A stretch of DNA of 64,000 nt. Source: an uncultured Candidatus Saccharibacteria bacterium. Its GTDB lineage: Bacteria > Patescibacteriota > Minisyncoccia > UBA6257. Under the pieces are notes generated by a model that was given only the letters and a program-made list of their open reading frames with translations, made no database searches and was not told the DNA's origin. A program made the translations under genes and the position numbers. Positions 271 through 24,609 of the stretch are shown here, piece by piece (within the stretch, counting starts at the first letter, position 1; each line of letters begins with the position of its first letter). The stretch lies in contig CAYZJA010000001.1 of NCBI GenBank assembly GCA_964479005.1, forward strand, positions 128,001 to 192,000, given 5' to 3'.

Positions 271-1047
271 GTGCTTACAAAATTTATTCAAAAATTGCGA
301 AAAAAGAATAATATGACGCAGGAATTTTTGGCGTCCGAGTTGAATATCTCTCGTCCTACTTATGTTCAAATAGAACAAGGCGAACGGGATTTAACTATCA
401 CCGAAGCGGAAAAACTAGCTTCTATTTTTGGAATTTCTTTTGAAGATTTTAGACATGGAAAAGATTCTTCAATTACCGCAAAAATTGAAAAGAATAAAAT
501 CAAACCAAAAATAGGAAAACAAGAGATAAGAATTAACGTCCCGCAAAAAAATCTTAAAAAATTTAAGGAAGTTTTACTTTATGTTTTGTCAAAAGTCGGC
601 GGTAAATCAAATGTCGGCGAAGCGGTATTATATAAACTGCTTTATTTTATTGATTTTGATTTTTACGAAAAATTTGAGGAACAATTGATTGGCGCGACAT
701 ATATTAAAAATCATTATGGGCCAACTCCTGTTGAGTTTAAAGCTATTATTGGCAATATGATTCAAAACGATGAAGTCGTAAAAGTTGAGGGAAAATATTT
801 TAATTATCCACAAAGAAAATATCTGCCAGTTAGACGGCCAGATCTTAATGTTTTATCTGGACGAGAGATAGAACATATTGATGATGTTTTGGCGCGTCTT
901 GCTGATAAAAATGCTAAAGAAATGGAAAATTACTCCCATGAAGATATTCCGTGGAAAACGGCGGAAAATGGCAAACCACTTTCCTACGAAAGTGTTTTTT
1001 ATCGTGACGAACGTTATTCTGTAAGAAATTATGAAGACGAACTTTAA
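271..1047 (+). CDS. XRE-family HTH fused to Panacea (DUF4065) domain; antitoxin-like
   Basis: N-terminus 'MTQEFLASELNISRPTYVQIEQGERDLTITEAEKLASIFGIS' is a Cro/C1-type HTH. The central 'VLYKLLYFIDFDFYEKFEEQLIGATYIKNHYGPTPVEF' matches the SocA/GepA-type Panacea fold. Its stop overlaps the start of the next ORF by 17 nt. Confidence 0.7.
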   Translation: MLTKFIQKLRKKNNMTQEFLASELNISRPTYVQIEQGERDLTITEAEKLASIFGISFEDFRHGKDSSITAKIEKNKIKPKIGKQEIRINVPQKNLKKFKEVLLYVLSKVGGKSNVGEAVLYKLLYFIDFDFYEKFEEQLIGATYIKNHYGPTPVEFKAIIGNMIQNDEVVKVEGKYFNYPQRKYLPVRRPDLNVLSGREIEHIDDVLARLADKNAKEMENYSHEDIPWKTAENGKPLSYESVFYRDERYSVRNYEDEL

Positions 1048-3474: not shown

Positions 3475-4641
3475 TTATTTTTTAAATGGAGATATTTTTC
3501 TTAATTTTTTTATGGCTTTTGACAGTATTTTAAGCAGATAATTAATATCTTGTTCTGTAGTCCATCTTCCTATTGTTAATCTCAAAGAACTATGTGCTTG
3601 TTCTGGTCGTAATCCGCATGCCAAAAGAATATGGCTAGGTTCTAATTTTTCAGAAGAACAGGCAGAACCAGTAGAAGCGGCAATTCCATAGGAGTTTAAA
3701 TTCATTACAATAGATTCACCTTCAACATAAGAAAACCAAAAATTAGCATTATTAGGCAATCGTTTTTTGCCATGGCCATTAAGATGAGAATCTGGTATTT
3801 TCTTCAAAACTTCATTAATTAGCTTATCTCTTAACTTGATTTGTCTTTTTGATTCTTTTTTCATTTCTTTTTCACAGATTTCTATTGCTTTTCCAAACCC
3901 TACAATTGCCGGAACATTAACAGTTGATGCTCTTAATCCAAATTCATGGCCTCCGCCGTGAATTAATGGTTCTATTTTTGTTCCTTTTTTAACATATAAC
4001 AAAGCCGCGCCTTTTGGCCCATAGATTTTATGTGAAGAAGCAGTTAATAAATTAACTTTCATTTTCTGTACATCAAGAGGCATTTTTCCAAAACTTTGGA
4101 CTGCGTCAGTATGAAAATATACTTTTTTCTTTTCACAGATTTTTCCTATTTTTTCAATTGGTTCAATAGTTCCTATCTCATTGCTCCCATGAATAATTGA
4201 TACTAATATTGTATCTTTTCTTATGGCTTTTTCTATTTCTTTTGGATCGATCATGCCATATTTATTGACTTTTATTTTTGTAAGCTCAAAACCTTGTTTT
4301 TCTAACCATTCAGCGCTGTTTAAAACGCAGCTATGTTCAATAGAGGAAATAATAATGTGTTTGCCCTTGTTTTGGTTAGCAAAAGCTATTCCCTTAATAG
4401 CAAGATTATTACTTTCTGTTGCTGAGCTTGTAAAGATTATTTCATTTTTATTTTTCGCATTAAGGACTTTTGACATTATTGAGCGGCTTTTTTCCAGAGC
4501 TTTTTTTGCTTCTTCACCAAAACTATGCAAAGAAACAGAATTCCCAAATTTTTCTGTAAAATAAGGAAGCATCGCCTTTAATACGCGAGAATCAACAGGA
4601 GTAGTAGCAGCATAATCCAAATATGTTTTTGTAATTTTCAT
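3475..4641 (-). CDS. iscS: cysteine desulfurase (NifS/IscS class V aminotransferase)
   Basis: PLP-lysine region 'SSHKIYGPKGAALLYVKKG' and C-terminal 'STGSACSS' active-site Cys loop. Operon with iscU and mnmA. Confidence 0.9.
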   Translation of the reverse strand: MKITKTYLDYAATTPVDSRVLKAMLPYFTEKFGNSVSLHSFGEEAKKALEKSRSIMSKVLNAKNKNEIIFTSSATESNNLAIKGIAFANQNKGKHIIISSIEHSCVLNSAEWLEKQGFELTKIKVNKYGMIDPKEIEKAIRKDTILVSIIHGSNEIGTIEPIEKIGKICEKKKVYFHTDAVQSFGKMPLDVQKMKVNLLTASSHKIYGPKGAALLYVKKGTKIEPLIHGGGHEFGLRASTVNVPAIVGFGKAIEICEKEMKKESKRQIKLRDKLINEVLKKIPDSHLNGHGKKRLPNNANFWFSYVEGESIVMNLNSYGIAASTGSACSSEKLEPSHILLACGLRPEQAHSSLRLTIGRWTTEQDINYLLKILSKAIKKLRKISPFKK

Positions 4642-4713
4642 AATTCAATCAATTTTAGCACAAAGAAAATGAGTTTACAATTCTTATAATTTCTGTTAAT
4701 TTATATAAAGAAC

Positions 4714-4785
4714 GCCGGGGTAACTCAGTGGTAGAGTAGCTGTTTCGTAAACAGCAAGTCGCGAGTTCGAATCTCGCCTCCGGCT
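4714..4785 (+). tRNA. tRNA-Thr (anticodon CGU)
   Basis: Cloverleaf: acceptor GCCGGGG/CTCCGGC; D-arm ACTC-AGTGGTA-GAGT; anticodon stem GCTGT/ACAGC with loop TTCGTAA; T-arm GCGAG-TTCGAAT-CTCGC. Confidence 0.8.
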
Positions 4786-4801
4786 CAGTAATTTTTATTC
4801 C

Positions 4802-4829
4802 TTGACTTGATTTTACTTTGCTCTATAAT
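4802..4829 (+). promoter_or_regulatory. sigma70-like promoter (TTGACT-16-TATAAT)
   Basis: cTTGACTtgattttactttgctcTATAAT lies just upstream of an AAGGAGG SD and the ATG at 4871. Confidence 0.45.
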
Positions 4830-4870
4830 TATGCATTAGGGTAATGGCAGGAAAAAAGGAGGTGTTTGTT

Positions 4871-5212
4871 ATGAGAATTAAAAGAACAATCTCTGGACCA
4901 AAAAGAAACACCCCCTCTACTTATGGACAGGAACTTTCTATGGCCAAAAACGTTGTGGAAAGTACATTAAGTAGTAAAAATAAGCAACTGATAGAATATA
5001 TTTTATCAGTTGCTAAATTGAAAATTAGAGGCGATAATTTTTTCGCTACTAAGATAAAAAAACTTTCAGATAGGGTAATGATAAACGGGGGTGTTTTAAT
5101 GAAAAAAACCAGGAGAATCAATCTTTACATTTACAACATGGATTTAAGGTCAACGCAAGAATTGATTGATAAAGCCCGAAGTATTTTAGAGGTAAATAAA
5201 AATGCAGCTTAA
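4871..5212 (+). CDS. hypothetical protein
   Basis: ORF with a strong SD (AAGGAGG at 4855-4861, 9-nt spacer to the ATG at 4871); the upstream ATG at 4844 has no SD. No family recognised. It sits where rplK/rplA would normally precede rplJ. Confidence 0.35.
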   Translation: MRIKRTISGPKRNTPSTYGQELSMAKNVVESTLSSKNKQLIEYILSVAKLKIRGDNFFATKIKKLSDRVMINGGVLMKKTRRINLYIYNMDLRSTQELIDKARSILEVNKNAA

Positions 5213-6823: not shown

Positions 6824-6858
6824 AAGACCTGTTATATTTGATATAGCAGGTCTTTTTC
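6824..6858 (+). terminator. intrinsic terminator
   Basis: aaAGACCTGttatatttgatatagCAGGTCTttttctt: a GC-containing stem followed by a T-run. Confidence 0.6.
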
Positions 6859-6867: not shown

Positions 6868-6916
6868 AAAGTTATCCACAATGGGACTTGACAAGATTTA
6901 AATGTTTGCTATACTA
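6868..6916 (+). promoter_or_regulatory. conserved strong promoter module (DnaA-box-like 9-mer + -35 + extended -10)
   Basis: aagTTATCCACAatgggacTTGACAagatttaaatgtt TGcTATACT. 48 of 49 nt are identical to the minus-strand copy at 29082-29130. Core also shared with 10481-10515. Confidence 0.6.
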
Positions 6917-6919
6917 CGG

Positions 6920-6983
6920 ATGCTGTCGTTTGGAAGTATTTGTTAGCTTGCTAATGGATATGGAAGAGTGGCAGCATTTTTTT
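6920..6983 (+). ncRNA. candidate structured small RNA, copy 1 (promoter-to-terminator unit)
   Basis: AUGCUGUCG…UGGCAGCAU forms a 9-bp outer stem around an inner GUUAG-CUUG-CUAAU hairpin, ending in U7. Both stems are kept in copy 2 by compensatory substitutions. Confidence 0.45.
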
Positions 6984-7212
6984 ATACTTACATAATAACA
7001 AAAGATACGAAGAATTGTCCTTCATATTTTTGATTGACTTTATTAATAAGACGTGATATAGTAAAAATGCTCTTAATTGAGCATTTTTTTGTACTTTGAC
7101 ATTTAAAATATATAGCCGTAACAGGGAAAATTCTTTGTTATTGGAGATAAAAGATAGATTATTAAATGATTTGATTAGTAAAAAATAAATTTAAATAAAG
7201 GAGGAAAGAAAG

Positions 7213-7926
7213 ATGAAAAGGAAGTTAGTTATAGTTTTTGTTTTGTTTATTTTAGTGCTGAGTTTTACTCCAATTTTGAAACACTGGTCTTCAGAATGGG
7301 AATTGAATGCCCCAGTGTTATTGGATAGCGTTCAATTATCGAATGATTGCCGTATATTGTTGGGATCGTATTATTCAAGCGGGGTGATTTATCAGGATAA
7401 TTCTTTTGAATTTATTACTCATTCATCTGATGTGTTTTCTGATGTAAATGGTTTTAGGCCCTATCCTTGGGGAGGAGAAGTGTTTTCAGGAGAAATATCT
7501 TTTTTATGTTCCCTTGATAATTATACAGGATTCAGATCATTTATGATCCAGGGGAAACAGAAAGATGATCATGGCGCCATTGCTGTTCCTGGTTTACTGT
7601 CAAAACCAAATGTAGAATCAGGAGAATTATATTATCTATCGTTTTGGGTGAAATATGATATTCAAGAAGGAGGATTTAGGCTTACACAACAATTCTTTCG
7701 TAAGCAAGACAGCGAATATCCTCATTATGCTTGCTATGGTTCTTTGATTAAAGGTAATAGTAATAAACGCTGGGAGTATGTAGGTTTAATTGTTCAGGCA
7801 CCAATTGATGCTTGGAAAGGAGATCCAGTATTAGAATTGAAAGGCAAGGGATTTGTTTTAGTTGATGATGTTTATTTCGGAAAGATAGAAATAATAAAGG
7901 AGGTGAATAAAGGTGAGATTCTTTAG
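7213..7926 (+). CDS. secreted/membrane-anchored hypothetical protein (possible beta-sandwich carbohydrate-binding protein)
   Basis: Strong SD AAGGAGG, N-terminal signal/TM helix, and a stop overlapping the GTG start of the GT2 gene. Function is inferred only from operon context. Confidence 0.4.
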   Translation: MKRKLVIVFVLFILVLSFTPILKHWSSEWELNAPVLLDSVQLSNDCRILLGSYYSSGVIYQDNSFEFITHSSDVFSDVNGFRPYPWGGEVFSGEISFLCSLDNYTGFRSFMIQGKQKDDHGAIAVPGLLSKPNVESGELYYLSFWVKYDIQEGGFRLTQQFFRKQDSEYPHYACYGSLIKGNSNKRWEYVGLIVQAPIDAWKGDPVLELKGKGFVLVDDVYFGKIEIIKEVNKGEIL

Positions 7927-9196
7927 AAAATTAGGTATTTTTTCTTTTGAGGATTTTGTCTATGCCGGTTCTACTTTTGTGCTCGCGATGTATGTCATTT
8001 GTATTCTTGTAATTACTCTTTTCCAAATAACAGGGCAATCAGTAATTTTTAGCAGCCGTTTTTCACTCTGTTCTTTGGACATTCAATTTCCTTTTTTCTT
8101 AATTATTTGCATCATCCTGATGTATTTGAGTATGTTTATCTGGATTTTTATGGGATTTGCAGGTATATTTTATAGAAAAAAGGTAGATTTGAAGCAAGAA
8201 GATGATTCTACTCTAATATCAGTTCTTATCCCTGCGCATAATGAAGAAGATGTTATAGAAGGTATTTTGGGAGATTTAGTAGCGCAAGAATATAAGAACT
8301 TAGAGATTATCGTATTAGCTCATAATTGTACTGATTCCACAATATCCAGAGCGCAATCAGTAGATGATTCAAGGATTCAAATATTGGATATAAGAACTCG
8401 TAAGTCAGGAAAAGCATTAGCCCTTAACAGAGGATTAGAAGAAGTAAAAGGAGAAATTATTGCTCTATTTGATACTGACAACAGGATAAAAGATAAAAAA
8501 TTCTTTAATCGAGCAATAGTATATTTCAGAGACGAAACCATTGATGCTATCCAAACCGAACTTGCTACAAGTAACAGATCTGCTTCTTTGTTGACTTTTC
8601 TTCAGGAAGTAGAATATGATACTTTCTCTTCAATATCCTGGCGTGGTAGGGATGTTCTAGGTCTTCCTTGTTTTTTAGCAGGAACAGGTATTTTTATCCG
8701 AACAAAAACCTTAAGAGAGATGGGTGGATGGAAAAATTCCTTGGTGGAAGATTTTGAACTTTTTACTAGATTGACTTTGGAAAAGAAGAAGATAGTTTTT
8801 GCTGATAATCTTGTTGTTTATGATGAAAAACCGCCATCTTGGAGTGGAATAATGAAACAAAGATCACGTTGGATAAAAGGTCATTTGAAGGTTACTTGGG
8901 ATAATCTAGATAAGTTTGGAAATTGGTTGGACTATATTTATCGCTTGACTCCTTTAGCTGTTTTTGCATGGTGGGCATCAAATTTCCTATACTGGTTTTA
9001 CTATCTAACTGGCCAAATTTCTATTTTTAATGTAACAGGATGGATTTGGTTAAGTTGGACTTTTGCCTTCTTTGCTCTTCCTACTTATAATAGTATAAAA
9101 AAACGCAGTTGGAAAGGGGTTTTATTTTTGCCTGTTTATTGGTTCTTTGTTTTTCACTTGCTGTGGGCAAGTTTATACAGTTTAGGAGTGAAATGA
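7913..9196 (+). CDS. family-2 processive beta-glycosyltransferase (cellulose/PNAG/chitin-synthase-like)
   Basis: N-terminal TM helices, 'ISVLIPAHNEE…' and 'LFDTDN' (DxD), plus 'QRSRWIKGH' matching the QxxRW processive GT2 motif, and C-terminal TM helices. GTG start preceded by AAGGAGG. Confidence 0.8.
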   Translation: MRFFRKLGIFSFEDFVYAGSTFVLAMYVICILVITLFQITGQSVIFSSRFSLCSLDIQFPFFLIICIILMYLSMFIWIFMGFAGIFYRKKVDLKQEDDSTLISVLIPAHNEEDVIEGILGDLVAQEYKNLEIIVLAHNCTDSTISRAQSVDDSRIQILDIRTRKSGKALALNRGLEEVKGEIIALFDTDNRIKDKKFFNRAIVYFRDETIDAIQTELATSNRSASLLTFLQEVEYDTFSSISWRGRDVLGLPCFLAGTGIFIRTKTLREMGGWKNSLVEDFELFTRLTLEKKKIVFADNLVVYDEKPPSWSGIMKQRSRWIKGHLKVTWDNLDKFGNWLDYIYRLTPLAVFAWWASNFLYWFYYLTGQISIFNVTGWIWLSWTFAFFALPTYNSIKKRSWKGVLFLPVYWFFVFHLLWASLYSLGVK

Positions 9197-10353
9197 AACT
9201 TAGTAGGGAAATTGTAATAACGATTATAATTTTAATCTTTTTATTGGTATCTTTATCCGAATTTGGAGCAACTTTTTATTCTTCTATATCTCAAAAGCAG
9301 AAAAGTAGTAATTATATTTACGATGAGAAAATTATAGTTATAGATGAGAAAGTTATAGAAGATGAAAGACAGGAGATAGAGAATATTCAAATCAGTTTTA
9401 GAGGAATAGATTTCTATCCTGATCCTTATCCTTATTCTACTTCAGAAGCTTTTGATGCCTTAGAACAGCTCCTTAATTTTCAGGGAATGAATTATGTCCA
9501 ATTACGTTTTTTCCTAACTCAAGATTCTCTTACTTCCAACAAAGTGGTTTATGATGAAAAACAAGATATTACTCTAGAAAGCATGATTGTTATGATTCAT
9601 CAAGCAGGAAAGAGAGTATCATTACTGCCTGATATTATCATTAAAACAGGGGATTATGTAGCTAGTCTTAGTCCTGAAGATATTGAACAATGGTTTGCTT
9701 CTTATTATGATGCTTTAATGCACTATGCTATTTTGGCGCAGACATATGATGTAGAATTATACTGTATCGGTAATGAGCTTCATTCTTTATGGATAGAGGA
9801 TCAAAAATGGAGATACATTATTGATAAACTGAGAGAGCAATACAAAGGTTTAGTCACTACTAAACTTAACTGTTGGTGGCAGGAAAAAACATTCCAAAAA
9901 GTATTAACTTATGGTTGGCTGGAAAAACTTGATTATATTGCCATTGCTCCATATTTTGATCTAACGTGGGAAAATGATCTTTCTTTAGAAGAAATAAAGA
10001 GCAGCTGGCAGAATAGTCGTCATGGACTTAATATAGTAGCAGAATTGGAAGAAATCGCTAAAAAATATAAAAAAAAGATGATTTTTTCAGAGATTGGTTA
10101 TAGAAGCATTGATGGAACTACTATTGAACCTTGGAATAGTGATTCTATAGTACCTCGTTCAGGAGGAAGTGGTAAGATTGATTTAGAAGAACAATCCTTA
10201 GCTACTCAAGCTTTATTTGATGTTTTCAAAGATAAAGATTGGTGGGGAGGAGTATTCTGGTTCTATTGGCCGACTGTTAAACCAAATGAACAAGATAAAA
10301 CATGGGCTATATGGAATAAACCAGTACAGCTGGTTATTCAAAATAATTTTTGA
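9193..10353 (+). CDS. membrane-anchored glycoside hydrolase (clan GH-A TIM-barrel-like)
   Basis: N-terminal TM segment. 'YCIGNELH' resembles the NEP acid/base motif and 'IFSEIGYRS' a nucleophile motif, and the protein is aromatic-rich. Start set at the ATG at 9193 (GGAG 5 nt upstream), which overlaps the GT2 stop. Confidence 0.5.
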   Translation: MKLSREIVITIIILIFLLVSLSEFGATFYSSISQKQKSSNYIYDEKIIVIDEKVIEDERQEIENIQISFRGIDFYPDPYPYSTSEAFDALEQLLNFQGMNYVQLRFFLTQDSLTSNKVVYDEKQDITLESMIVMIHQAGKRVSLLPDIIIKTGDYVASLSPEDIEQWFASYYDALMHYAILAQTYDVELYCIGNELHSLWIEDQKWRYIIDKLREQYKGLVTTKLNCWWQEKTFQKVLTYGWLEKLDYIAIAPYFDLTWENDLSLEEIKSSWQNSRHGLNIVAELEEIAKKYKKKMIFSEIGYRSIDGTTIEPWNSDSIVPRSGGSGKIDLEEQSLATQALFDVFKDKDWWGGVFWFYWPTVKPNEQDKTWAIWNKPVQLVIQNNF

Positions 10354-10356
10354 AAC

Positions 10357-10390
10357 AAAGGGGAAGATTAATCTTCCCCTTTTATTTTTT
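10357..10390 (+). terminator. intrinsic terminator of GT2-GH operon
   Basis: aaAGGGGAAGAttaaTCTTCCCCTtttatttttt. Confidence 0.7.
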
Positions 10391-10486
10391 ATAAATATAA
10401 AATATTTTTATCATTTAATTTATAAAGCCAATGAAAGAGTTGGCAAATCATTATTAATATCATATTTTACTTAATTAAGAGTGGAC

Positions 10487-10515
10487 TTGACAAGAAAAAA
10501 AAAGTTTGCTATTGT
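10487..10515 (+). promoter_or_regulatory. promoter (TTGACA-17-TGcTATTGT), third copy of the conserved promoter core
   Basis: 'ggacTTGACAag' and 'gtttGCTAT' are shared with the 6868 and 29130 modules. Confidence 0.5.
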
Positions 10516-10521
10516 GTTTTC

Positions 10522-10678
10522 ACGGTGGGGCTTTTATTTTAGCCCCGCAGTGGGGCTTATGAATAATATTCAAAAAAGGGGATTTCATAATTTAAACAAA
10601 ATTTCTTTTCGATTTCTTGCGTTTAGTAAAATTGAAAAAGAAGTTTTTTGAGGTTGGCGTTTTTGCGCCAACTTTTTA
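10522..10678 (+). ncRNA. structured leader or sRNA with alternative hairpins and intrinsic terminator
   Basis: GGGGCU-uuuauuuu-AGCCCC (10527-10546) overlaps AGCCCC-gcagu-GGGGCU (10541-10557), giving two mutually exclusive pairings. Later GTTGGCG-uuuuug-CGCCAAC plus U5 (10653-10677). The next gene starts at 10736. Confidence 0.4.
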
Positions 10679-10735
10679 ATATTAAAATTAATAAAAAAAA
10701 TAAATAAAAAAATAAAAATTAATAAAATAAAAAAA

Positions 10736-11998
10736 ATGAAAAAAATAATAACAATTTTAAGTACTTCCCTTTTGATGTTTGCTTTTGTAACTTCAGTTTC
10801 CGCAGCAGCTCCGAATTGGAATGTCAGTGGAACATGGATGGCAGAGCATGAGTTCGGGGGGAATACTTACTCTCATGTAAACAACATTGTTCAAGCACTA
10901 GACGGTTCCCTGACGGGGACCGGAGGATGGGATGGTACGCAAAACGGCATCCCCGTTGGTACTCCTAATACATGGGAGATAACCAACGGTTCGGTTTCTG
11001 GTAACAACATTCAATTTAACTACCAATACAATACCGTCGAGTTATGCGCCAAGGATGGAGGTATTGATGCAGTAATTAATGCTGACGGTTCTATGACTGG
11101 AACATGGCATGATGATTGTGGTACTGGACGAACTGGCGCATGGACAGTCCCAGCAGGTTCCGCAGTCTATTTAAGAACTGCAGAAATTACTTCTCCAACA
11201 TCAGGAGAAGAAGTTTCGGGAATGGTTTCATTTGATGCAATACTAACTGACAAAGATGGTGATGATAGTGTTCAATGGGCAGTTCGTCAGGGTACTTGCA
11301 CTGCAGGAATAGGAACAGTGTTTGGTAATGTAGATGGTAAATCAGATATCTACACTTGGGATCATGTCAATTTCCATGCATCAGCCGATACTTCTTCCTG
11401 GGCTCCTGGAAATTACTGTTTTGTCTTTAATCCCACAGAGAGTGCTGGAGATATAGCTATTAGAGAGACACGAGAGTTTATCCTAAAAGACACTGTAGCA
11501 CCATTGGTAACGATAGAAAGTCCTAGTGAGGGTGATGTTGTTTCTGGTACAGTTGAAATTTATGGAACTGTTGTAGAATACTATATGCTAAGTCACTACA
11601 ATATCTCGGTTTATCCAGGTGATGCCGACTTTAATGATTTCAGCAAAAGAATAGCTCAAGCAACTATTTATCGCACTACGGGTTTTAGTAATGAATTAAT
11701 TTTCGCATGGGATTCAACTGGATTTGAAGATGGCGAGTATCTAATTAGATTAGCTGCTAGAGACGCTGCTGGTAATCGTAGTTATGATGGCGATGCATAT
11801 CTAGGTGGTGATGATTCACAGCATGTGATTAGAGTAACTGTGAATAATATACCAGACCTAATTGGTCCACCGATTAATAAAGATCAATGTAAAAAAGATG
11901 GTTGGAAGATATTTGATAATCCAAGTTTTAAGAATCAGGGAGATTGTGTAAGTTATGTCCAGAGTAATGAAAATGCAAAAGGAAATAAAAATAAATAA
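10736..11998 (+). CDS. secreted protein with Ig-like beta-sandwich repeats
   Basis: Signal peptide 'MKKIITILSTSLLMFAFVTSVSAAAP'. Gly/Thr/Asp-rich beta-type composition. Noticeably GC-richer than its neighbours. A-rich leader with no SD. Confidence 0.5.
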   Translation: MKKIITILSTSLLMFAFVTSVSAAAPNWNVSGTWMAEHEFGGNTYSHVNNIVQALDGSLTGTGGWDGTQNGIPVGTPNTWEITNGSVSGNNIQFNYQYNTVELCAKDGGIDAVINADGSMTGTWHDDCGTGRTGAWTVPAGSAVYLRTAEITSPTSGEEVSGMVSFDAILTDKDGDDSVQWAVRQGTCTAGIGTVFGNVDGKSDIYTWDHVNFHASADTSSWAPGNYCFVFNPTESAGDIAIRETREFILKDTVAPLVTIESPSEGDVVSGTVEIYGTVVEYYMLSHYNISVYPGDADFNDFSKRIAQATIYRTTGFSNELIFAWDSTGFEDGEYLIRLAARDAAGNRSYDGDAYLGGDDSQHVIRVTVNNIPDLIGPPINKDQCKKDGWKIFDNPSFKNQGDCVSYVQSNENAKGNKNK

Positions 11999-12023
11999 AA
12001 AATAAATAAAAAAAATAAAAAAT

Positions 12024-13772
12024 ATGAATAAACAATTATTCTCTAAAACGATTTCACTTTTCTTAGTTTTTTCTTTGGTGTTCGTAGGTGTTTCAATATT
12101 TTCACCAAATAATATTGAAGCTAAAGGACAGAAACCAAATAACAAAATATCAATTTGTCATAGAACTAGTTCTGCTACTAATCCTTGGAATGTAATTAAT
12201 GTTAGTGTTAATGCTCAAGATGCTCACTTAGCTCATGGAGATTTTCTTTATGAAGGTAGTTATCCAGTGAATTCTAAAGAAGCAGAGGAATGGTGTGGCA
12301 TGACTAGATATACTTGTAATGAAAGTACTTGGCAATGTGTAATTGATAACCAAGGTCAATATTCAAGTTATGATGATTGTTCAACTGTTTGTCAGGAACC
12401 AATGGCAACTGTAACAATTTGTAAATATGACGAAGAAAGGAATCCTTTAAGTGGATGGAAAATGATTTTGAAAGGGGATTTGCAAGACCAAGTAACTGTT
12501 TTTCCTGATGGGTCAGCATATTTGTCAGGAGATTTACCATTAGAAGATTATTTATTAATGGCTTCTGGTCAATATGTTTATAGGCCTGGAACTTTAGGGG
12601 CTGAATATTCTGATGCTGGCTATACTAAGAGGAATTGTCCAGGAGATGCTACTTATTTATGTAGTGGTCCCTATACCCCATGGTTTAATGTTTTTGATAT
12701 TATAGGTATTCATAAAGGATGGTTGGGGATTATGGTTAATGACGCCGCAACTAATTGGGGTTCTTACTTTAACTCTGCTCATACTTATGCTCTGGGATAT
12801 CCTAATTATAGTGGTTCATTATCTTTTACAATTAAAGATGATGTGTATAGTGATAATTCAGGACAATTAAATGTTGATATTTATAAAGGATATACTGGGG
12901 AGACAGATGAAAATGGTTGTATAACCTTTAATGATGTTCCTTTGGAAACTTATTCTCTTGAGGAAATTCTTAAAGATGGATGGCAAAATGTTAGTGGTTT
13001 AGGACAGATTGTTATTGATGAATCTCAAGAAACTTTTGATGTGATTAATAGTGAAATTAAAAGCGAAAAAGAACTAGCATGCATAAATTCAGGTGGCACA
13101 GTTGGAACAGGTATATGCTGCAAAAGTGTAGAAGGTTTTCCAAATGATTGTGCTACAGGAGCCTGCGGTTGTTCTGCAGGAGATAGCCATGAAGTTCAGG
13201 TTTGTAATTGTCCAGCAGGCAAATGTTTTGATGGAAATTCCTGCGTAACAAAATGTGAAGAAGGAATTAATCTTCTTAAAAACGGTAGTTTCGAATATCC
13301 GGAAGTAACTAATACAAGCAAATGGCAGTTATTTCCATCAGGGACAGCTCTACTTGAATGGGTAGTTGGATGGGTTAGCGCTGCTCCATCAGACCCTCCA
13401 ACAATTGAAATACAGAAAGGCGTAGTAGTTTCTCCTAGTAATGGACTTCAAAGCATTGAATTAGATTCAGAAGCTCCAACCTATATTTCTCAAGCAGTTA
13501 ATACAGAATCTGGCTATGGATATAAATTAAGCTTTGATTTTGCAGCCAGGCCTAATACTTCAGAAGAAGATAATAAATTAGAGGTTTGGGCTGATAGTAT
13601 TCTTAAAGATAGTATTAGCAGCAATACATCTTGGCAAACAAAAACATATAATTTTAATGCTACTTCTAACCTTACGGAAATCAAATTCGTGGATATAGGA
13701 ATTCCTAATACCGATTCAATGGGTACATTATTAGATAATGTTAAATTAGAATGTGTTCCGCCGGTTCTGTAA
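12024..13772 (+). CDS. secreted surface protein (SpaA/Cna-B-like domain + C-terminal lectin-like domain)
   Basis: Signal peptide. The 'TVTICKYDEERNPLSGWKMILKGD…' domain and the C-terminal 'NGSFEYPEVT…LDNVKLECVP' domain are both paralogous to parts of the next gene. Confidence 0.55.
   Translation: MNKQLFSKTISLFLVFSLVFVGVSIFSPNNIEAKGQKPNNKISICHRTSSATNPWNVINVSVNAQDAHLAHGDFLYEGSYPVNSKEAEEWCGMTRYTCNESTWQCVIDNQGQYSSYDDCSTVCQEPMATVTICKYDEERNPLSGWKMILKGDLQDQVTVFPDGSAYLSGDLPLEDYLLMASGQYVYRPGTLGAEYSDAGYTKRNCPGDATYLCSGPYTPWFNVFDIIGIHKGWLGIMVNDAATNWGSYFNSAHTYALGYPNYSGSLSFTIKDDVYSDNSGQLNVDIYKGYTGETDENGCITFNDVPLETYSLEEILKDGWQNVSGLGQIVIDESQETFDVINSEIKSEKELACINSGGTVGTGICCKSVEGFPNDCATGACGCSAGDSHEVQVCNCPAGKCFDGNSCVTKCEEGINLLKNGSFEYPEVTNTSKWQLFPSGTALLEWVVGWVSAAPSDPPTIEIQKGVVVSPSNGLQSIELDSEAPTYISQAVNTESGYGYKLSFDFAARPNTSEEDNKLEVWADSILKDSISSNTSWQTKTYNFNATSNLTEIKFVDIGIPNTDSMGTLLDNVKLECVPPVL
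12560..12742. repeat. inter-paralog DNA repeat, copy 1
   Basis: ~180 nt, >90% identical to 16548-16730, with perfect runs of 46, 40 and 26 nt (e.g. tattctgatgctggctatactaagaggaattgtccaggagatgct). Confidence 0.8.
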
Positions 13773-13878
13773 GTTATAAATAATATCCGGCAATTACAAA
13801 AGAAAAAGTTGATAGGATTTAATGGCGAATTAACCGTTCATTTTAAATAAAAGATTAAAAAGTTAAATATATAAAAAA

Positions 13879-16800
13879 ATGAAAAAACAATTTTTCTCTA
13901 AAACATTTTCAATTTTCTTGGCACTTTCTTTTGTACTTTCTAATAGCGCAATGTTAGTGCCATTACAAGCTGAAGCTTGTGAGGAAGAAATATGCGAAGA
14001 CGTTATTGTGGTAAGTAATATAGAAGATAAGGTTTTTGATATTGCAGAAACTCTTCCCGGTGAAGCAGCTGTTCTTGCTTGGGATGATCATCCGGCATGG
14101 ACAGCGTATATTGAAGGCGCAAATTGGATTTGGAAGACAGAATATGTAGAAAATCCTGATCAAGACGAAACATATATATTTAAAAAAGATTTTGATATTG
14201 TTGGCATTCCAGATTCTGCAACATTAAAAGTTGCAACTGATAATTCGTATAGTGTTTGGGTTAACAATGTTTTGATTGGAGAAGTTATAACTGAAGATAA
14301 TCACAGTTCAACAACCCAAGATCAATATAATAATATCGTTGACTTTCATACCGGTTCAAATGAAATTAAATTTGAAGTTAAAAACTGGGCAGGAAATGCG
14401 TCACCGAAATTAAATCCTGCAGGTCTTTTGTATAGACTTGAGATTGTAAGATCTTCTTGTGAACCTCAATGTATACCTCAATCTTCTATAGAAACAGACT
14501 GTACTAATGGTTTAGATGATGACTGCGATGGTTTTATTGATAGTGAAGATTCTGATTGTCAGATGTTAATAATGGCTTCTAAAGTAATTTGTGATAATGA
14601 ATCAGATTTACCTAATTGGGGGACAGGATCTGGAGTTGACTATCCTTCATATAACATTGATCAAAACACAGCTTCGGATTATGTAGCTGAACATTCTGGT
14701 TGTTATTTAGCTTCTAATTGGTTTTTTCAATGGGGACAACAAGGTTCTGATGATTTTGGAAAAGACTTTTATGGAGAAGCTGGCAATGGCTACACTACTT
14801 TTGGGCCAACAAATGAAAATGGAGTAGCTAGTACAACAGTGGATTCTGTTACCGGTAGTTATTTGGAATTAAGGGAAGTTCTGCAGCAAGGTTATATTCC
14901 TTTTACGTATGACCAATCACATAAATCTAATGATAATAATATTTCTGCAGAATTTTATTGCCACAATGATATTCTCAATTATGATAACTGGGATTATATA
15001 AAAAATCCTCAATTAGGAATTACTCATTATTGCGTTGGATTTAATGCATTAATCGAACAAGAAGAACCAGAACCTGTTTGTGGAAATGAAATTATAGAAA
15101 CTGGTGAACAATGTGATCCACCTTCAACCACTGCTCCTAATTCTACTGATGAATATTTCTGTGACCAAAATTGTAATTTAGTTCCTATCTATCATTCTCT
15201 GGATGGTTGTCCAAAAAATCAAATCCTAGAATTTATTCAGTCTTATCAAATTCATTCAACTAGTACGACAGAAGTTATTATTCCTGTGAGTGGTAGCGAT
15301 ACATATAAGTTTGAAGTTAAAGGAACTTTTTATCCTACTCAAAATGGAAAAAATGAGAATTTCCTATCAGATGCCGCCTATACGACTGAAGATGGCTGGG
15401 TTTCAACTTCTACAAAATACGGAATTAAAGGCATACCACCTGATTATGCTGCCCATGCTTTATTAGGTGATTTAGGATTAGGGGCTGGAGTAATTAATTG
15501 GGGAGATTATGATTCTTCTCATGAATATGATTTCTCTTACACAATTCCTTCAGGCGCTACTTCTACTCAATTTGTGATAGGTGATAGATGGGATAATTGG
15601 TTTATACCAGATGATATTAGTTGGAATAATCAAGGCGGAATGAAAGATAATCTTGGAAATTTGACTTTAGATGTTTATGAGTGTAAGCCAATCCAAGCTA
15701 GATGTGATCCTAAGTTAGAATTAGTTATGAATGGCGATTTTGAGAGTCCTGAAGTGACTGATCTAGTAAAAAAATGGGGTATTTTTCCATCAGGGACAAC
15801 CGATTTAGAATGGTTAATTAATTGGAGAGAAATTTGGCCTTCAGCACCAAAAATAGCAAATCTTGAAATTCAGAAAAGTTATTATACTCCAGTAATAGCT
15901 CCTGTAGTTCCTGGAGATCCAGATCAATATGCTGAGTTAGATACTGATTGGCATGGTCCAGGTGGACCTTCTGGTGAACCAGCCTCAGTAGCTATTTCTC
16001 AAGATATTCCAACAATTATAGGGGAAACTTATAGATTAAGTTTTGATTTTTCACCACGACCATATACTGATTTAGAACAGAATCATTTAAAGGGTTTTGT
16101 TGATAGCGCTGAATTATTTGATATTTCTGCTGATGGTTCTGGTTTAACAGATACTTTATGGAATCAATATTCTGATAATTTTGTTGCTACAAGTTCAATA
16201 ACAAACATTAAATTTACTGATTATGGTACACCAGACTCTTTAGGCACTTTCTTAGATAATGTTAGCGTAAGATGTGTTCCTCAGGACGAACCTACTATGT
16301 ATCATTGTAATGAGGAATGGCAATGTATAGCAGATCCTGAAGGTGAATATAATACTGATAATTGTGACAATCAATGTATTAAACCTGGAACATCCACAGT
16401 TACTATTTGTAAATATAATGAACAAGAAGAACCTTTAAGAGGTTGGAAGATGATACTTAAAGGTGATAGGTATGATACAGTGCCTGTTTTTCCAGATGGG
16501 CAAAATTATTCTTCAAATCCTTTGCTATTAGGTGATTACTTAATTCAGGCTTCTGGTCAATATTTATATAGACCAGGAACACCTGGCGCTGAGTATTCTG
16601 ATGCTGGCTATACTAAGAGGAATTGTCCAGGAGATGCTGATTATTTATGCAGTGGAGATTATACCCCATGGTTTAATGTTTTTGATATTATAGGTATTCA
16701 TCAAGGATGGTTGGGGATTATGGTTAATGATAATCTTACTGATTGGGGGTATTTTACTTCTGACCATACTTATACTCTTGGCTATCCTGGTTATAGTGGT

Positions 16801-18201
16801 TCGTTCACTTTTACTATAAAGGATGATGTATATTCAGATAATAGTGGATCATTAACAGTTAAAATCTATAAAGGCTATGTAGGGGAAACTGGAGAAAAAG
16901 GATGTGTTACATTTAATGGTGTTCCTTATGGCGAGTATATAGTTGATGAAGATCTTCAAAGTGGTTGGATAAATCAAGATGGTTTAGGAAATGTTACAGT
17001 AGATGACCTAGAAGAAACATTTGATGTTGTCAATATTCCACCAGAAGGACAGATAGGTTCTTTAACTGTTTGTAAATATAGAGATCACGAACCATTTGGG
17101 GAATACAATACAGGTATTGATACACCTCTAACTTGGGAGATGAGAATTATTGGACCTAATAGTTATGATCAATTGTACGAAACTGATCCTCAGAATGGAT
17201 GCAAAACAATAAATAATTTAGAATATGGCCAATATGTAGTTTCTGAAGAATTGAAGATTGGTTGGGATCAAACTTATCCTCTTGATCCTAATACCCATAC
17301 CATTGATATAAATGGCGGTAATTCTAATCCATCAGTATATTTCTTGAATTATAAAACAATTGATAATGGTGGAACAAAATATGCTTGTAATGCAGAAGGG
17401 CAATGTATAGAAAATGAAGGGGGTAATTATACCACTTCTAATTGTGATGAAGAATGTAGACCATATCCATATACTTGTAATTCATCTACCTCAGAATGTG
17501 TACGTGATGTTCATGGCCAATTTGGTTTATTGCAAGGTTGTGAGGATGCTTGTAGGGTATCTACTCCATTAGGAGGTCAATATGCAATATTGGGAACAGT
17601 TTTGGGTGCTGCTACTGAAAAGGAAGAAGAACCTTGCGGTCTTTATCTTTTGGAATACATAAAGCTTGGAGGTGATAATAATCCTGAGGAAGTGAAGAAA
17701 TTACAATATTTCTTAAATGAATATCTTGGCATTAATTTAGAGATAACAGGAGTTTATAATCAAGCTACTTATCAAGAAGTTATGAGATTCCAGCTTCTTT
17801 TGAACGATGAAATTTTGGCTCCTTGGGTTGAAGTTAATTGTCTTCCATCTAGTAATATAGCTACTGGTTATGTTTATCGAACAACACAATGGAAAATAAA
17901 TATGATTGTTTGTCCAGAATTGAACCTTCCAGTACCGAATTTATATGATGAAACTTGTAAATATATTAGTCTATATCCAGGAGAAGGTGTAGTTGCTGGA
18001 GCAGCTACTTCTACAGTGGGTGGAACTAATGGAACTACCACAACTACCTCAACTACAACTCCTGAAACAATAGGAGATACTACAACAACTGTTCCTCAAG
18101 ATACTGGGGATGAGCAGTCACAAAATTGGATTTGGGTTTTGATTGGACTTTTAGTGATTGGCGGCGCAGCTTATTTGGTTTATCAAACTAGACAAGTATA
18201 A
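13879..18201 (+). CDS. giant (1440 aa) cell-surface protein with C-terminal TM anchor
   Basis: Signal peptide, multiple Cys-rich beta domains, two regions ~70% identical in protein to the 12024 gene product, a Thr-rich stalk (TTTTSTTTPETIGDTTTT), and a C-terminal helix 'WIWVLIGLLVIGGAAYLVY'. Confidence 0.6.
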   Translation: MKKQFFSKTFSIFLALSFVLSNSAMLVPLQAEACEEEICEDVIVVSNIEDKVFDIAETLPGEAAVLAWDDHPAWTAYIEGANWIWKTEYVENPDQDETYIFKKDFDIVGIPDSATLKVATDNSYSVWVNNVLIGEVITEDNHSSTTQDQYNNIVDFHTGSNEIKFEVKNWAGNASPKLNPAGLLYRLEIVRSSCEPQCIPQSSIETDCTNGLDDDCDGFIDSEDSDCQMLIMASKVICDNESDLPNWGTGSGVDYPSYNIDQNTASDYVAEHSGCYLASNWFFQWGQQGSDDFGKDFYGEAGNGYTTFGPTNENGVASTTVDSVTGSYLELREVLQQGYIPFTYDQSHKSNDNNISAEFYCHNDILNYDNWDYIKNPQLGITHYCVGFNALIEQEEPEPVCGNEIIETGEQCDPPSTTAPNSTDEYFCDQNCNLVPIYHSLDGCPKNQILEFIQSYQIHSTSTTEVIIPVSGSDTYKFEVKGTFYPTQNGKNENFLSDAAYTTEDGWVSTSTKYGIKGIPPDYAAHALLGDLGLGAGVINWGDYDSSHEYDFSYTIPSGATSTQFVIGDRWDNWFIPDDISWNNQGGMKDNLGNLTLDVYECKPIQARCDPKLELVMNGDFESPEVTDLVKKWGIFPSGTTDLEWLINWREIWPSAPKIANLEIQKSYYTPVIAPVVPGDPDQYAELDTDWHGPGGPSGEPASVAISQDIPTIIGETYRLSFDFSPRPYTDLEQNHLKGFVDSAELFDISADGSGLTDTLWNQYSDNFVATSSITNIKFTDYGTPDSLGTFLDNVSVRCVPQDEPTMYHCNEEWQCIADPEGEYNTDNCDNQCIKPGTSTVTICKYNEQEEPLRGWKMILKGDRYDTVPVFPDGQNYSSNPLLLGDYLIQASGQYLYRPGTPGAEYSDAGYTKRNCPGDADYLCSGDYTPWFNVFDIIGIHQGWLGIMVNDNLTDWGYFTSDHTYTLGYPGYSGSFTFTIKDDVYSDNSGSLTVKIYKGYVGETGEKGCVTFNGVPYGEYIVDEDLQSGWINQDGLGNVTVDDLEETFDVVNIPPEGQIGSLTVCKYRDHEPFGEYNTGIDTPLTWEMRIIGPNSYDQLYETDPQNGCKTINNLEYGQYVVSEELKIGWDQTYPLDPNTHTIDINGGNSNPSVYFLNYKTIDNGGTKYACNAEGQCIENEGGNYTTSNCDEECRPYPYTCNSSTSECVRDVHGQFGLLQGCEDACRVSTPLGGQYAILGTVLGAATEKEEEPCGLYLLEYIKLGGDNNPEEVKKLQYFLNEYLGINLEITGVYNQATYQEVMRFQLLLNDEILAPWVEVNCLPSSNIATGYVYRTTQWKINMIVCPELNLPVPNLYDETCKYISLYPGEGVVAGAATSTVGGTNGTTTTTSTTTPETIGDTTTTVPQDTGDEQSQNWIWVLIGLLVIGGAAYLVYQTRQV
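16548..16730. repeat. inter-paralog DNA repeat, copy 2
   Basis: Matches 12560-12742. Confidence 0.8.
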
Positions 18202-18373
18202 ATATCAGACAAGATTGAATCAAAAAACAGTGCTGATTTAGCATTTTTTGCGTCAATTTTTAGTAGTTGGACCTAAATATGAAATTTAGGTAGTAAAAAC
18301 TAATAGGTCGATCTTTGGTAAAAACCAAAGTAAAAAAATCAAAAATAACAAATTAAATTAATTAAAAATTAAA

Positions 18374-18889
18374 ATGAAAAAGATATTAATTGGTTTAACG
18401 ATCATTACATTGGCTGCAATGGTTGCTAGTCCTGCTATGGCTTACTACTGGCCAATGCCAATGGAATCCAGTGACGTAACAGTCAATAATGATAGTTACT
18501 CGAGGATTCGCAATAACGTAACAGTTGTTGCTAAAACCGGCGATAACACTGCTAATACTGGCTCGGCAAGTTTCGGTGGTTTGGGTAGTACAATTCAGAC
18601 TGGTAATGCTGTCGCTGAAGCGACAGTAGTAACTGTTGCCAACACAAATTACACCAGAATTAAGGCTCCTTGCACTAATTGCGACGGCGATGTCACTGTT
18701 AACAATGATGATAGTGACGCTTTTGTCAGGAATAGAGTTAGGGTTATTGCCGACACCGGCGATAACACTGCTAATACTGGCTCGGCATGTTTAGGTGGTG
18801 AGGGTAGTTTGATTGTAACAGGCAGTGCATGGGCTGAAGGAAATGTTGTTACTGTTACTAACACTAACATAACCAGAATTCGCAGATAG
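18374..18889 (+). CDS. secreted protein with two tandem ~50-aa repeats
   Basis: Signal peptide. Repeats 'NNVTVVAKTGDNTANTGSASFGGLGSTIQTGNAVAEATVVTVANTNYTRI' and 'NRVRVIADTGDNTANTGSACLGGEGSLIVTGSAWAEGNVVTVTNTNITRI'. Confidence 0.55.
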   Translation: MKKILIGLTIITLAAMVASPAMAYYWPMPMESSDVTVNNDSYSRIRNNVTVVAKTGDNTANTGSASFGGLGSTIQTGNAVAEATVVTVANTNYTRIKAPCTNCDGDVTVNNDDSDAFVRNRVRVIADTGDNTANTGSACLGGEGSLIVTGSAWAEGNVVTVTNTNITRIRR

Positions 18890-18994
18890 TAATTGATTGT
18901 TATGAACAGGAAGGGGGTTCTTTGTCCTCTTCCTTGCATAAGCCCTTAAAAGATTATTTTGAGGGCTTATGCAAGGGATATTAAAAAATCAAAT

Positions 18995-19549
18995 ATGAAA
19001 AATCAAATATCAAAAATTCCGGTTTTAGTTGCTTTTCTGACAATTATTCCGTTAGTTTGCGGGGCTTTTTCCTTTGAAGAACCTTTTGATGATTTTGAAG
19101 AATGGATTTCGGATCTTAGTGATGGAATGAGTAGTACTCATATAATAAATGAAGTTAAGGTTTTAACAAATACTGGCAATAATGTAATTAATGGCGAAAT
19201 AACAGAAGGTGAAGCAAAAAGCCGGATTTTTATTAAAAACGTTATTAATGGAAAAGAAATAGACCCAATTGAGATTGAATCTGATAAAAACGAAATTAAA
19301 GTGGAAAGCCAAATTAAAACAGAAAATGGCAAAGTTATTATTCAGAGAGAAATTCAAATTGATTCTGAAAAAAGCACTGAAAATTATGAGGTTGATTTGG
19401 AAAATTCAGAAACTGAGACAGAAAGTGAAGGAATATTGAAAGACGGTTTAGATTCCTTTCAAGAAGGATGGTTAGATTTTATCGAAGATTTAAGGTCTTT
19501 TTTTGACGATATCTTTAATATTTTTAAATTAAATGCAAGAATCAAATAG
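18995..19549 (+). CDS. secreted acidic protein carrying one copy of the same repeat
   Basis: Start chosen at the ATG at 18995, which gives the signal peptide 'MKNQISKIPVLVAFLTIIPLVCGAF'. 'INEVKVLTNTGNNVINGEITEGEAKSRIFIKN' matches the repeat. Confidence 0.45.
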   Translation: MKNQISKIPVLVAFLTIIPLVCGAFSFEEPFDDFEEWISDLSDGMSSTHIINEVKVLTNTGNNVINGEITEGEAKSRIFIKNVINGKEIDPIEIESDKNEIKVESQIKTENGKVIIQREIQIDSEKSTENYEVDLENSETETESEGILKDGLDSFQEGWLDFIEDLRSFFDDIFNIFKLNARIK

Positions 19550-22163: not shown

Positions 22164-22181
22164 AAGAATTGAATTAGAAAT

Positions 22182-22220
22182 AAAACAGGACTGATAACAA
22201 TATTAGCCCTGTTTTGTTTT
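22182..22220 (-). repeat. 32-nt conserved hairpin/terminator-like element, copy A (inverted, diverged)
   Basis: The reverse complement reads gggctaatattgttatcagtcctgtttt. On the + strand it forms AAAACAGG-N18-CCTGTTTT followed by a T-run. Confidence 0.55.
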
Positions 22221-22329
22221 ACGATAATTGACTATTGACTCTTGGCCTATAATCTGTTATCATTTTAGAGCAATTAAAGAAGATTATTTTATAGCATTTT
22301 GAAAATTTTATAAAAAGAGGTGAAATATA

Positions 22330-22578
22330 GTGGATAAGAAAGAAAAGATAGATGTATTGGTTTTATGTTGTATGATGATAGTTTTTGTTACTTTGTCGAA
22401 ATTGACGTATAATTTTTGCATGTCTAAAGGAGTAGAATATATATCAAAATATATCGCTGCTTCTTTAACACCTTTAGAATCCATATTAGCTTTAGTTTGC
22501 TGGATTATTTTTTCTTGTCTTATGTTTCTTCTGACGCTTTACTTGTTTTGTCTTTGGAAAGATGATTTTTGCGAATGA
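22330..22578 (+). CDS. small 2-TM Cys-rich membrane protein
   Basis: GTG start with SD AGAGGTG and two hydrophobic helices. First gene of the small-ORF cluster. Confidence 0.35.
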   Translation: MDKKEKIDVLVLCCMMIVFVTLSKLTYNFCMSKGVEYISKYIAASLTPLESILALVCWIIFSCLMFLLTLYLFCLWKDDFCE

Positions 22579-22606
22579 TGAAAATTATATTAAGGAGGTA
22601 ATTAAT

Positions 22607-22849
22607 ATGTCAAGGGAATTAACAAATCTCGAGATAAGAGCATTGAATTTCAAAGTAGGAGAAAAAGTCAAGGAGTTTTTAGTGTGCGCGGTATGCAAAG
22701 GCAATCCCGGTATAGAATATGGGAATATTGACAATGTCAAATTTTGCGGTGATAAAGATTTTGCTAAAGAAAAAAAGAAGAAATTAAAAAAGAAATTTTC
22801 TAAAGATAATGTAAGCATTTTAGAAATTCAAGTTAGAAAAATAGAATAA
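22607..22849 (+). CDS. small Cys-containing protein with Lys-rich tail
   Basis: SD AAGGAGGTAATTA with an 8-nt spacer. 'CAVCKGNPGIEYGNIDNVKFCGDKDF' is a possible metal-binding knuckle. Confidence 0.4.
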   Translation: MSRELTNLEIRALNFKVGEKVKEFLVCAVCKGNPGIEYGNIDNVKFCGDKDFAKEKKKKLKKKFSKDNVSILEIQVRKIE

Positions 22850-22882
22850 TAAAATTAATTAATAAAAAAGGAGGTAATTATA

Positions 22883-23083
22883 ATGATACATATTTTAGAC
22901 ACTGAAGAAACACCTAATATTGGAAACCAAGTGTTTGCAAACTGCGGAGAGAAATTAGATTTTCGTCCTATATGCGCAGATATTTATGGCCGAAAAACTT
23001 GTCCCGAGTGTTTGAAAAAACATGATTTATTATCAAAATCGAAAACACCATCAATGTACATGTTTATACTAGAAGAAAAGTAA
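22883..23083 (+). CDS. small 4-Cys zinc-ribbon-like protein
   Basis: Identical SD (AAGGAGGTAATTA). 'CGEKLDFRPICADIYGRKTCPEC' has CxnC…CxxC spacing. Confidence 0.4.
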   Translation: MIHILDTEETPNIGNQVFANCGEKLDFRPICADIYGRKTCPECLKKHDLLSKSKTPSMYMFILEEK

Positions 23084-24606: not shown

Positions 24607-24609
24607 AAA

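Follow-up and report, generated by a model that had tools for sequence, protein, structure and literature searches.

A multi-copy family of predicted hairpin small-RNA genes with their own promoters and terminators in Paceibacterota genomes

Comparative analysis of a 64-kb stretch of DNA (64,000 nucleotides, hereafter the window) out of a 551,616-bp JGI contig and of short loci from related genomes revealed a real, previously undescribed family of predicted small-RNA genes with a narrow phylogenetic range. At least ten related Paceibacterota genomes contributed fourteen distinct versions of the RNA, as many as three copies lying within 1.7 kb, and the predicted genes fall into at least two conserved paralogues, A-type and B-type. 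Similarity between the paralogues begins at (G)ACTTGACA and stops just past the U-tract, the flanks being unrelated. Since these borders coincide with the −35 element and the U-tract, the conserved unit consists of promoter, hairpin, and terminator and thus represents a minimal gene. In line with a stand-alone small-RNA gene, the family combines a predicted promoter of its own at a fixed distance, an own terminator (U6-8 in every copy), and a covarying structure. Our literature search found no prior description of the family or of small RNAs in Patescibacteria/CPR. An earlier reading of the window, made without database searches (the sequence-only reading), had proposed a CPR origin of the DNA, in agreement with proteins at ≥90% identity that are labelled Candidatus Pacebacteria/Paceibacterota.

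Promoter, hairpin, and terminator of the two window copies

Two promoter-hairpin-terminator units sharing a nearly identical 49-bp block had been described in the sequence-only reading. Both sites were read and aligned, and the block (6869-6917 on the + strand, 29133-29085 on the − strand) proved to be identical at 48 of 49 positions. Its sequence is AAGTTATCCACAATGGGACTTGACAAGA[T/C]TTAAATGTTTGCTATACTAC, with the T/C position being the single difference between the copies. A 25-mer of this block has just two occurrences in the window, compared with none in 100 shuffles. The core promoters of both units (Table 1), assigned by their match to the sigma-70-type consensus alone, equal the rplJ promoter in quality, which is one of only three sites with 11/12 matches in the first 20 kb.

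Table 1. Coordinates of the two family copies and of a neighboring promoter-like element in the window.
Feature	Positions	Strand	Details
Copy 1 (A-type), upstream block AAGTTATCCACAATGGGAC	6869-6887	+	contains TTATCCACA at 6872-6880
Copy 1, predicted core promoter: TTGACA, 16-nt spacer, TG-extended −10 TGCTATACT	6888-6915	+	TTGACA-16-TATACT; 11/12 consensus matches, with TG
Copy 1, predicted RNA, long form	6920-6983	+	hairpin 6920-6977, 5'-AUGCUGUCG...CUUG...UGGCAGCAU-3'; U7 6977-6983
Copy 2 (B-type), upstream block, sequence as copy 1	29115-29133	−	from alignment
Copy 2, predicted core promoter: TTGACA-16-TATACT with TG-extended −10	29087-29114	−	11/12 consensus matches
Copy 2, predicted RNA, long form	29019-29082	−	hairpin 29082-29025; U7 29025-29019
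Second promoter-like site TTGACT-17-TATAGT, then 10-bp hairpin AAAAAUGCUC-UUAAUU-GAGCAUUUUU and U-tract	7034-7095	+	conserved in L020 and L028

The hairpin of each copy comprises 58 nt, begins 5 bases past the −10 element, and finishes in U7. Outer stems are formed by AUGCUGUCG/UGGCAGCAU in copy 1 and AUGCUACUG/CAGUAGCAU in copy 2, the inner hairpins being GUUAG-CUUG-CUAAU and AAUAG-CUUG-CUAUU, respectively. These stems, the CUUG loop, the U7 tails, and the 8-codon frames (MLSFGSIC and MLLSREIE) had all been quoted correctly. Both postulated stems do form, but as parts of one continuous hairpin, which in most family members contains a purine-rich internal loop. That both units fold alike was confirmed, and the fold is confined to the given strand, sense structures being far more stable than antisense ones: copy 1 folds with −23.5 kcal/mol (z −4.2) compared with −5.9 kcal/mol on the opposite strand, copy 2 with −30.3 kcal/mol (z −6.7) compared with −15.2 kcal/mol. 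The complementary strands fold poorly because many of the pairs are G-U. Orthologues gave corresponding values (−22.1 versus −16.1 and −23.7 versus −10.9 kcal/mol). The minimum free energy structure accounts for 0.37-0.66 of the ensemble, with no alternative fold.

Examination of the whole window against Rfam 15 at gathering thresholds returned three tRNAs only. At E ≤10, sub-threshold noise was obtained for both unit loci, the best match on the units reaching 16.3 bits against a threshold of 76, and ARAGORN detected neither tRNA nor tmRNA at either of them. With nothing relevant in Rfam at both settings, the proposal of a conserved structured RNA family outside tRNA, SRP, 6S, tmRNA, and RNase P stands. 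A covariance model (R1) scored copy 1 with 51.9 bits (E 2.6e-07) and copy 2 with 58.6 bits; in related genomes, the covariance-model check suggested earlier recovered the family with its stems kept through many compensatory changes.

A filter-free covariance-model scan of the window yielded the two copies and a weak 20.3-bit match (E 0.15) at 7067-7090. For the promoter-like element at this location (Table 1, last row), two identities are conceivable, the attenuator of the ORF237 leader and a degenerate relative of the family. The surrounding intergenic stretch of ~230 nt between copy 1 and ORF237 (window 6984-7215 on the + strand, L020 5028-5260, L028 3011-3243; L-numbers denote loci from related genomes) is 96% identical in genomes whose third codon positions are only ~80% identical. 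It holds the promoter-like site, the 10-bp hairpin with U-tract (7063-7095), and a 117-nt leader, which is 100% conserved save one base in L028 and contains a predicted stem at 7116-7143 (z −3.1). An Rfam scan of the leader region (7040-7260) at E ≤10 gave no match. We regard this stretch as a candidate cis-regulatory leader of the ORF237/glycosyltransferase operon. A further leader with a module-like promoter (GGACTTGACAAGA...GTTTGCTATTGT) was found at 10487-10570 (+), upstream of a 420-aa Ig-domain surface protein. It differs from the family RNA, features the mutually exclusive pairings GGGGCU/AGCCCC/GGGGCU followed by a terminator (10650-10675), and may be an attenuator; Rfam returned no match for 10470-10750 at E ≤10.

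Genomic positions and distribution in related genomes

Copy 1 is preceded by rplJ, rplL, tRNA-Val, and the gene of a 66-aa acidic membrane protein with its own terminator, and is followed by ORF237 and a glycosyltransferase gene. Copy 2 lies inverted in a 122-bp gap between two + strand genes, coding for a 282-aa ATP-cone/AF1548-like protein and PEP synthase (ppsA). Its RNA directly adjoins the convergent 282-aa gene at the stop codon, its upstream block is situated 6 bp from the first ppsA ORF ATG (29140) and 15 bp from the JGI-called ppsA start (29149), both on the opposite strand, and no gene follows on the − strand for many kilobases. Accordingly, the A-type position is defined as 3' of rplL, tRNA-Val, and the small ORF for the small acidic membrane protein, and the B-type position as convergent with the 282-aa gene and back-to-back with ppsA.

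Metagenomes scanned for a 19-mer from the promoter block yielded three real loci and one chance match, the source contig not being among them, and a genome scan with a promoter 18-mer one real locus (L012) and six chance matches in unrelated taxa, together providing four true loci (L008, L009, L010, and L012). Further loci were reached via the contigs of RplL homologues and one PpsA homologue. The module occupies the A-type site in L019/L023, L020/L021, L022, L028, L029, L031, L033-L036, and L037-L039, and follows the 282-aa gene in L012, L019, L023, and L040. At the syntenic site of the more distant L025/L026 (RplL 87% identical) the element is absent. Multi-copy genomes carry two to three modules spaced among genes of small membrane, lipoprotein, or Cys-rich proteins (L037 at 4011, 5002, and 5645; L033 at 3603 and 4607; two copies in L008). 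The earlier term “duplicated” thus holds for the two copies in the window, but the family is multi-copy, wider than this pair, and occurs in short and long forms. Two lipoprotein-like genes lie between two of the L037 modules (4254-4908); the pair contains consecutive CEQC/CETC/CEIC repeats, and its two ORFs apparently overlap or are separated by a frameshift.

Taxonomic labels of the carriers are in conflict. The sole GTDB-representative carrier of the module, L012 (CAYTXM010000006.1), is titled “uncultured Candidatus Saccharibacteria”, and PpsA at ≥90% identity (homologue P0135) is labelled Bacteroidales, whereas ribosomal proteins at ≥90% identity are assigned to Pacebacteria/Paceibacterota. 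The Saccharibacteria title of L012 and the Bacteroidales label of P0135 are probably due to mislabelling or mis-binning.

Several copies per genome, all of them intergenic and built around a palindrome, as well as the location of the L010 B copy in a different context, would fit a mobile or repeat element, i.e., a MITE- or REP-like palindrome with an outward-facing promoter. We consider this highly improbable, as terminal inverted repeats and target-site duplications are lacking, the borders coincide with the −35 element and the U-tract, positions are syntenic across at least ten genomes, and the G-U-rich pairing works on one strand only. In addition, a viral-contig scan with a promoter-plus-apex pattern gave 0 matches, and a genuine MITE of these genomes (end CCCCACACCA) looks quite different. 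This MITE-like element of ~75 bp with inverted ends CCCCACACCA...TGGTGTGGGG was located in L022 (4913-4987), L010 (2416 onward), and L025 (4553-4620) and is absent from the window.

The window also differs from L019 and L023 in gene content. Between copy 1 and ychF, genes of glycosyltransferases and of giant surface proteins with SpaA-like, DUF11, DUF642, and Ig-like domains extend over 19 kb (positions 7213-25800). L019 (5119) and L023 (5129) lack this block, which marks it as a cell-surface island of the window genome that is inserted or variable. In L019 and L023, the A (+) and inverted B (−) copies directly bracket a 3.3-kb ychF-acylphosphatase-ORF132-zincin/tRNA-bind-282-aa operon.

The extra tandem copies have no upstream AAGTTATCCACAAT block. 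Where present, the block upstream of the −35 element is identical in both window copies, L008, L009, L010, and L012 but variable in L019, L031, L037, and L040. It contains TTATCCACA 7 bp upstream of the −35 element in both window copies (29122-29130 on the − strand in copy 2), and the same 9-mer is found at 804-812 (+). TTATCCACA is the textbook DnaA-box consensus (box form TTATNCACA), and most first-copy A and B promoters have either TTATCCACA or TTATTCACA, the latter, a change at the degenerate position alone, in L019, L022, and L031. A putative role as DnaA box is weakened by the sequences TTATCCCCA in L037 and TTATCCAGA in L040 at the box position and by the block-less copies. The window shows no excess of DnaA boxes, with 22 observed versus 19.8 expected. 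An origin of replication was rejected, the GC skew being uniformly positive from ~4 kb on and DnaA boxes forming no cluster. In L022, a 75-bp MITE separates the upstream block from the −35 element, the RNA gene being intact. Based on its distribution, the block is an accessory element of some copies, possibly with a regulatory role.

Covariation and sequence constraint

Within the promoter, none of the 18 aligned copies deviates from TTGACA and TTTGCTATACT, and the stem always starts 4-5 nt downstream. Short forms of the RNA consist of a 19-bp stem with CUUG loop; long forms reach ~27 bp by eight extra apical pairs, formally a 16-nt insertion at the loop. The latter comprise both window copies, L022, and all B-type RNAs, thereby restricting the A-type long form to one lineage (window and L022). 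Common to the family are the G(CUUG)C apex, the U6-8 tail, and the closing pairs 5'-AUG/CAU-3' (AUG in 13 of 14 versions, UUG in L010). Invariant positions of the RNA are U2, G3, G9, U10, U12, G14, C56, A57, and the U-tract, with A1, A15, G52, and G55 being nearly invariant. G14 and A15 are conserved even though they face purines in a small internal loop in 10-11 of the 14 versions.

Support of the stems by covariation, as claimed from the two window copies, is weak on the basis of two sequences and strong with the 14 distinct homologues. Standard pairs account for 90.0% of cells, 14 of the 27 pairs have changed on both sides (37 cells), and none of 500 shuffles reached any of the five covariation measures. 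Sliding the 3' partner by 1-3 columns left 36-63% pairing and two-sided changes in 2-4 pairs; the test was also made in a 13-sequence version. Typical compensatory changes are C4-G55 to U-A in L012, G6-C53 to A-U in the B-type, G17-C42 and G19-C40 to A-U, and U21-A38 to C-G in L040.

The paralogues diverge at different rates. When the window is compared with L019 and L040, third codon positions of the adjacent 282-aa gene show 86% and 74% identity, respectively, while the B-type RNA bodies match at 58/58 and 53/58 positions. The B body is therefore more alike than silent sites, indicating a constraint in sequence as well as in structure. The truncated L023 locus is identical to copy 2 over the part present, and the B bodies of L010, L012, and L040 are 1, 2, and 5 bases off. 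A-type bodies diverge among genomes about as much as silent sites, the pairing being kept.

A coding function does not account for this pattern. Of the 14 versions, 13 begin with AUG, and several short forms read M-x-L-F-stop, which could indicate a leaderless micro-mRNA for a peptide of 4-8 residues. We give next to no credence to this explanation. As noted before for the two window copies, there is no conserved coding frame: the predicted peptides vary in length and sequence among homologues (MLLF, MPLF, MSLF, MLSF, MLSFR, MLSFGSIC, MLLSREIE), two versions (L031, L033) are devoid of an in-frame stop codon inside the RNA, and L010 has UUG instead of AUG. Conservation of the AUG is explained by the closing pairs A1-U58, U2-A57, and G3-C56.

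As the hairpin is at the same time an intrinsic terminator, covariation proves selection for the fold and not a function of the released RNA. The terminator of the 66-aa gene (window 6826-6858 on the + strand, AAAAAGACCUG...CAGGUCUUUUU), an ordinary bidirectional one, displays compensatory changes across genomes too (e.g., GACCUGUU/AGCAGGUC to GGUCUGUC/GGCAGACC in L020), hence plain terminators can covary here as well. Covariation therefore cannot separate a functional hairpin RNA from its main rival, a device at the level of transcription with the RNA as by-product. Such a device might serve as insulator, RNA polymerase sink, or source of local supercoiling, with B as head-on roadblock, and would delimit units in a compact genome. 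Consistent with this, the RNA is a terminator hairpin and nothing more, most stem positions vary freely provided that pairing is kept, and modules reside at gene-unit boundaries, punctuating arrays of small genes. They bracket the ychF-to-282-aa operon in L019 and L023, and in L028 the upstream ORF is without other terminator. Nevertheless, we rate this explanation as unlikely: the stems (≥19 bp, ~two helical turns) are ~2-3 times longer than those of other terminator-like hairpins in the window (5-11 bp), and the GCUUGC apex, G14-A15, and AUG/CAU foot are conserved beyond the needs of termination. Moreover, the upstream gene usually has an own terminator already, and B does not terminate + strand transcripts, for that strand has no U-tract and folds weakly.

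The surroundings of the modules also bear on a function as regulators of neighboring genes, in which B would act by cis-antisense or interference on a 282-aa-to-ppsA read-through mRNA and A as conditional attenuator of the downstream operon. B lies wholly antisense within the 122-bp gap between two + strand genes, and no promoter-like site for ppsA was found on the + strand of this gap; a read-through mRNA would thus be perfectly complementary to B over 64 nt. The majority of A copies are oriented towards downstream genes. However, A copies have no antisense partner, with no opposite-strand genes nearby, and no RNA is present 5' of the hairpin to form an alternative antiterminator. Downstream genes have an own promoter or a further terminator, as exemplified by the second terminator 3' of the A copy in L019 and the separate promoters in L037 and the window. 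Copy 2 and the third L037 copy have no co-directional downstream gene, the latter facing convergent genes, and the L010 B RNA adjoins PolX instead, having changed by one inserted base only. Since a 4-nt tetraloop in addition makes a poor kissing loop, regulation of neighbors is improbable as a general explanation. For B alone, a cis-antisense or interference role on the 282-aa-to-ppsA mRNA is plausible; it cannot apply to the A copies.

Proposed role and comparison with known systems

The comparisons establish the anatomy, conservation, covariation, strand specificity, and gene-like borders of the family; transcription, abundance, and, most tentatively, a protein-binding mode of action are what we infer. 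We tentatively propose, at chances somewhat short of even, an independently transcribed and probably abundant hairpin RNA that acts via its structure or protein binding and not via a seed. The near-consensus sigma-70-type promoter would start transcription at the hairpin foot or a few bases from it, and the hairpin together with the U-tract would halt RNA polymerase and free an almost wholly double-stranded RNA of 48-65 nt. Considering the lack of a single-stranded seed and a stem of at least 19 bp, this presumably abundant and very stable RNA may be read by a protein as dsRNA of defined length, with the AUG/CAU foot, the invariant G14-A15 purine loop, and the G(CUUG)C apex as likely recognition marks. 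The most plausible partner would be an RNase III-type or other dsRNA-binding protein, for which the RNA could be substrate, competitor, or scaffold. A terminator acting through structure alone would also be in keeping with a stem that can change in most of its sequence. Pfam analysis of 20 window proteins revealed ribosomal, surface, glycosyltransferase, and housekeeping functions only, with no RNA-guided or defence proteins near, and no conserved protein neighbor points to a partner.

Two other classes of regulatory RNA were rejected. Unpaired positions of the RNA are confined to the CUUG loop, the small purine loop, and the U tail, and a search of the remaining window for stretches complementary to either RNA gave none of ≥12 nt (chance-level 11-mers only), which argues against a seed-type base-pairing sRNA. 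A riboswitch-type attenuator is contradicted by the absence of RNA 5' of the stem, the absence of an alternative fold, and copies without co-directional gene.

Little dispensable DNA is retained in genomes of ~0.6 Mb. A covarying hairpin with a strong predicted promoter, present in several copies and conserved across a genus-level clade, is consequently a concrete candidate for an RNA with a regulatory or structural role, the first to be specific to CPR, and has the unusual design of a transcript that as a whole is its own terminator. Should the RNA be a mere by-product, the modules would exemplify how promoter-terminator pairs punctuate the gene units of a minimal genome.

The layout of promoter, 19-27-bp stem, tight loop, and U-run resembles an engineered shRNA cassette. 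It could be speculated that episymbiotic CPR bacteria make these hairpins in bulk as natural shRNA effectors, which act on or are handed to the host machinery for sensing or processing dsRNA, or as mimics of 16S helix 6 controlling ribosomes; we regard both as far-fetched. Effectors of this kind would imply different targets for the freely varying A stem and the sequence-constrained B stem. The family apex aGgaGCUUGCucCu (window 6942-6955 and 29047-29060) shows the same motif as E. coli 16S rRNA at the tip of its helix 6 (V1), AGAAGCUUGCUUCU (L041 249-262), the match being limited to the 14-nt apex (8.6 bits, E 0.57) with the remaining RNA unrelated. Bacillus and Pseudomonas carry GGGAGCUUGCUCC in V1. 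The likeness, a comparison with E. coli 16S, is to be taken as a lead only.

Among known systems, IS10 RNA-OUT and the plasmid RNAs CopA/RNAI are single-hairpin antisense RNAs of ~60-70 nt with strong constitutive promoters, in which a larger flexible loop starts pairing with a defined overlapping target. The family RNA likewise is about one long stable hairpin, and its B copy is antisense to a + strand unit, but its loop, CUUG, is a closed tetraloop, and an antisense transcript is lacking for the A copies. Qrr, the streptococcal csRNAs, and LhrC are paralogous sRNAs with a shared promoter box that act by base pairing through exposed seeds. Several paralogues per genome, the same conserved promoter, an upstream box in some copies, and an own terminator for each are shared with these groups; in contrast to them, the family exposes no seed and has no target in the window. 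In phage lambda PR'-tR', a terminator lies only a short way past a strong promoter, the architecture of Q antitermination. The promoter-terminator layout of the family would similarly give an abundant short RNA. Unlike PR'-tR', several copies are without co-directional genes and others are followed by extra terminators or promoters; a Q-like protein or pause element was not identified. With intrinsic terminators, the family shares a G/C-containing hairpin foot, directly following U6-8, and a stable tetraloop nucleating the fold. It differs from them by its stem of 19-27 bp compared with 5-11 bp for the others in the window, a near-consensus promoter 4-5 nt upstream that makes the terminator the whole transcript, the conservation of the apex and several stem bases, and its multi-copy, syntenic occurrence.
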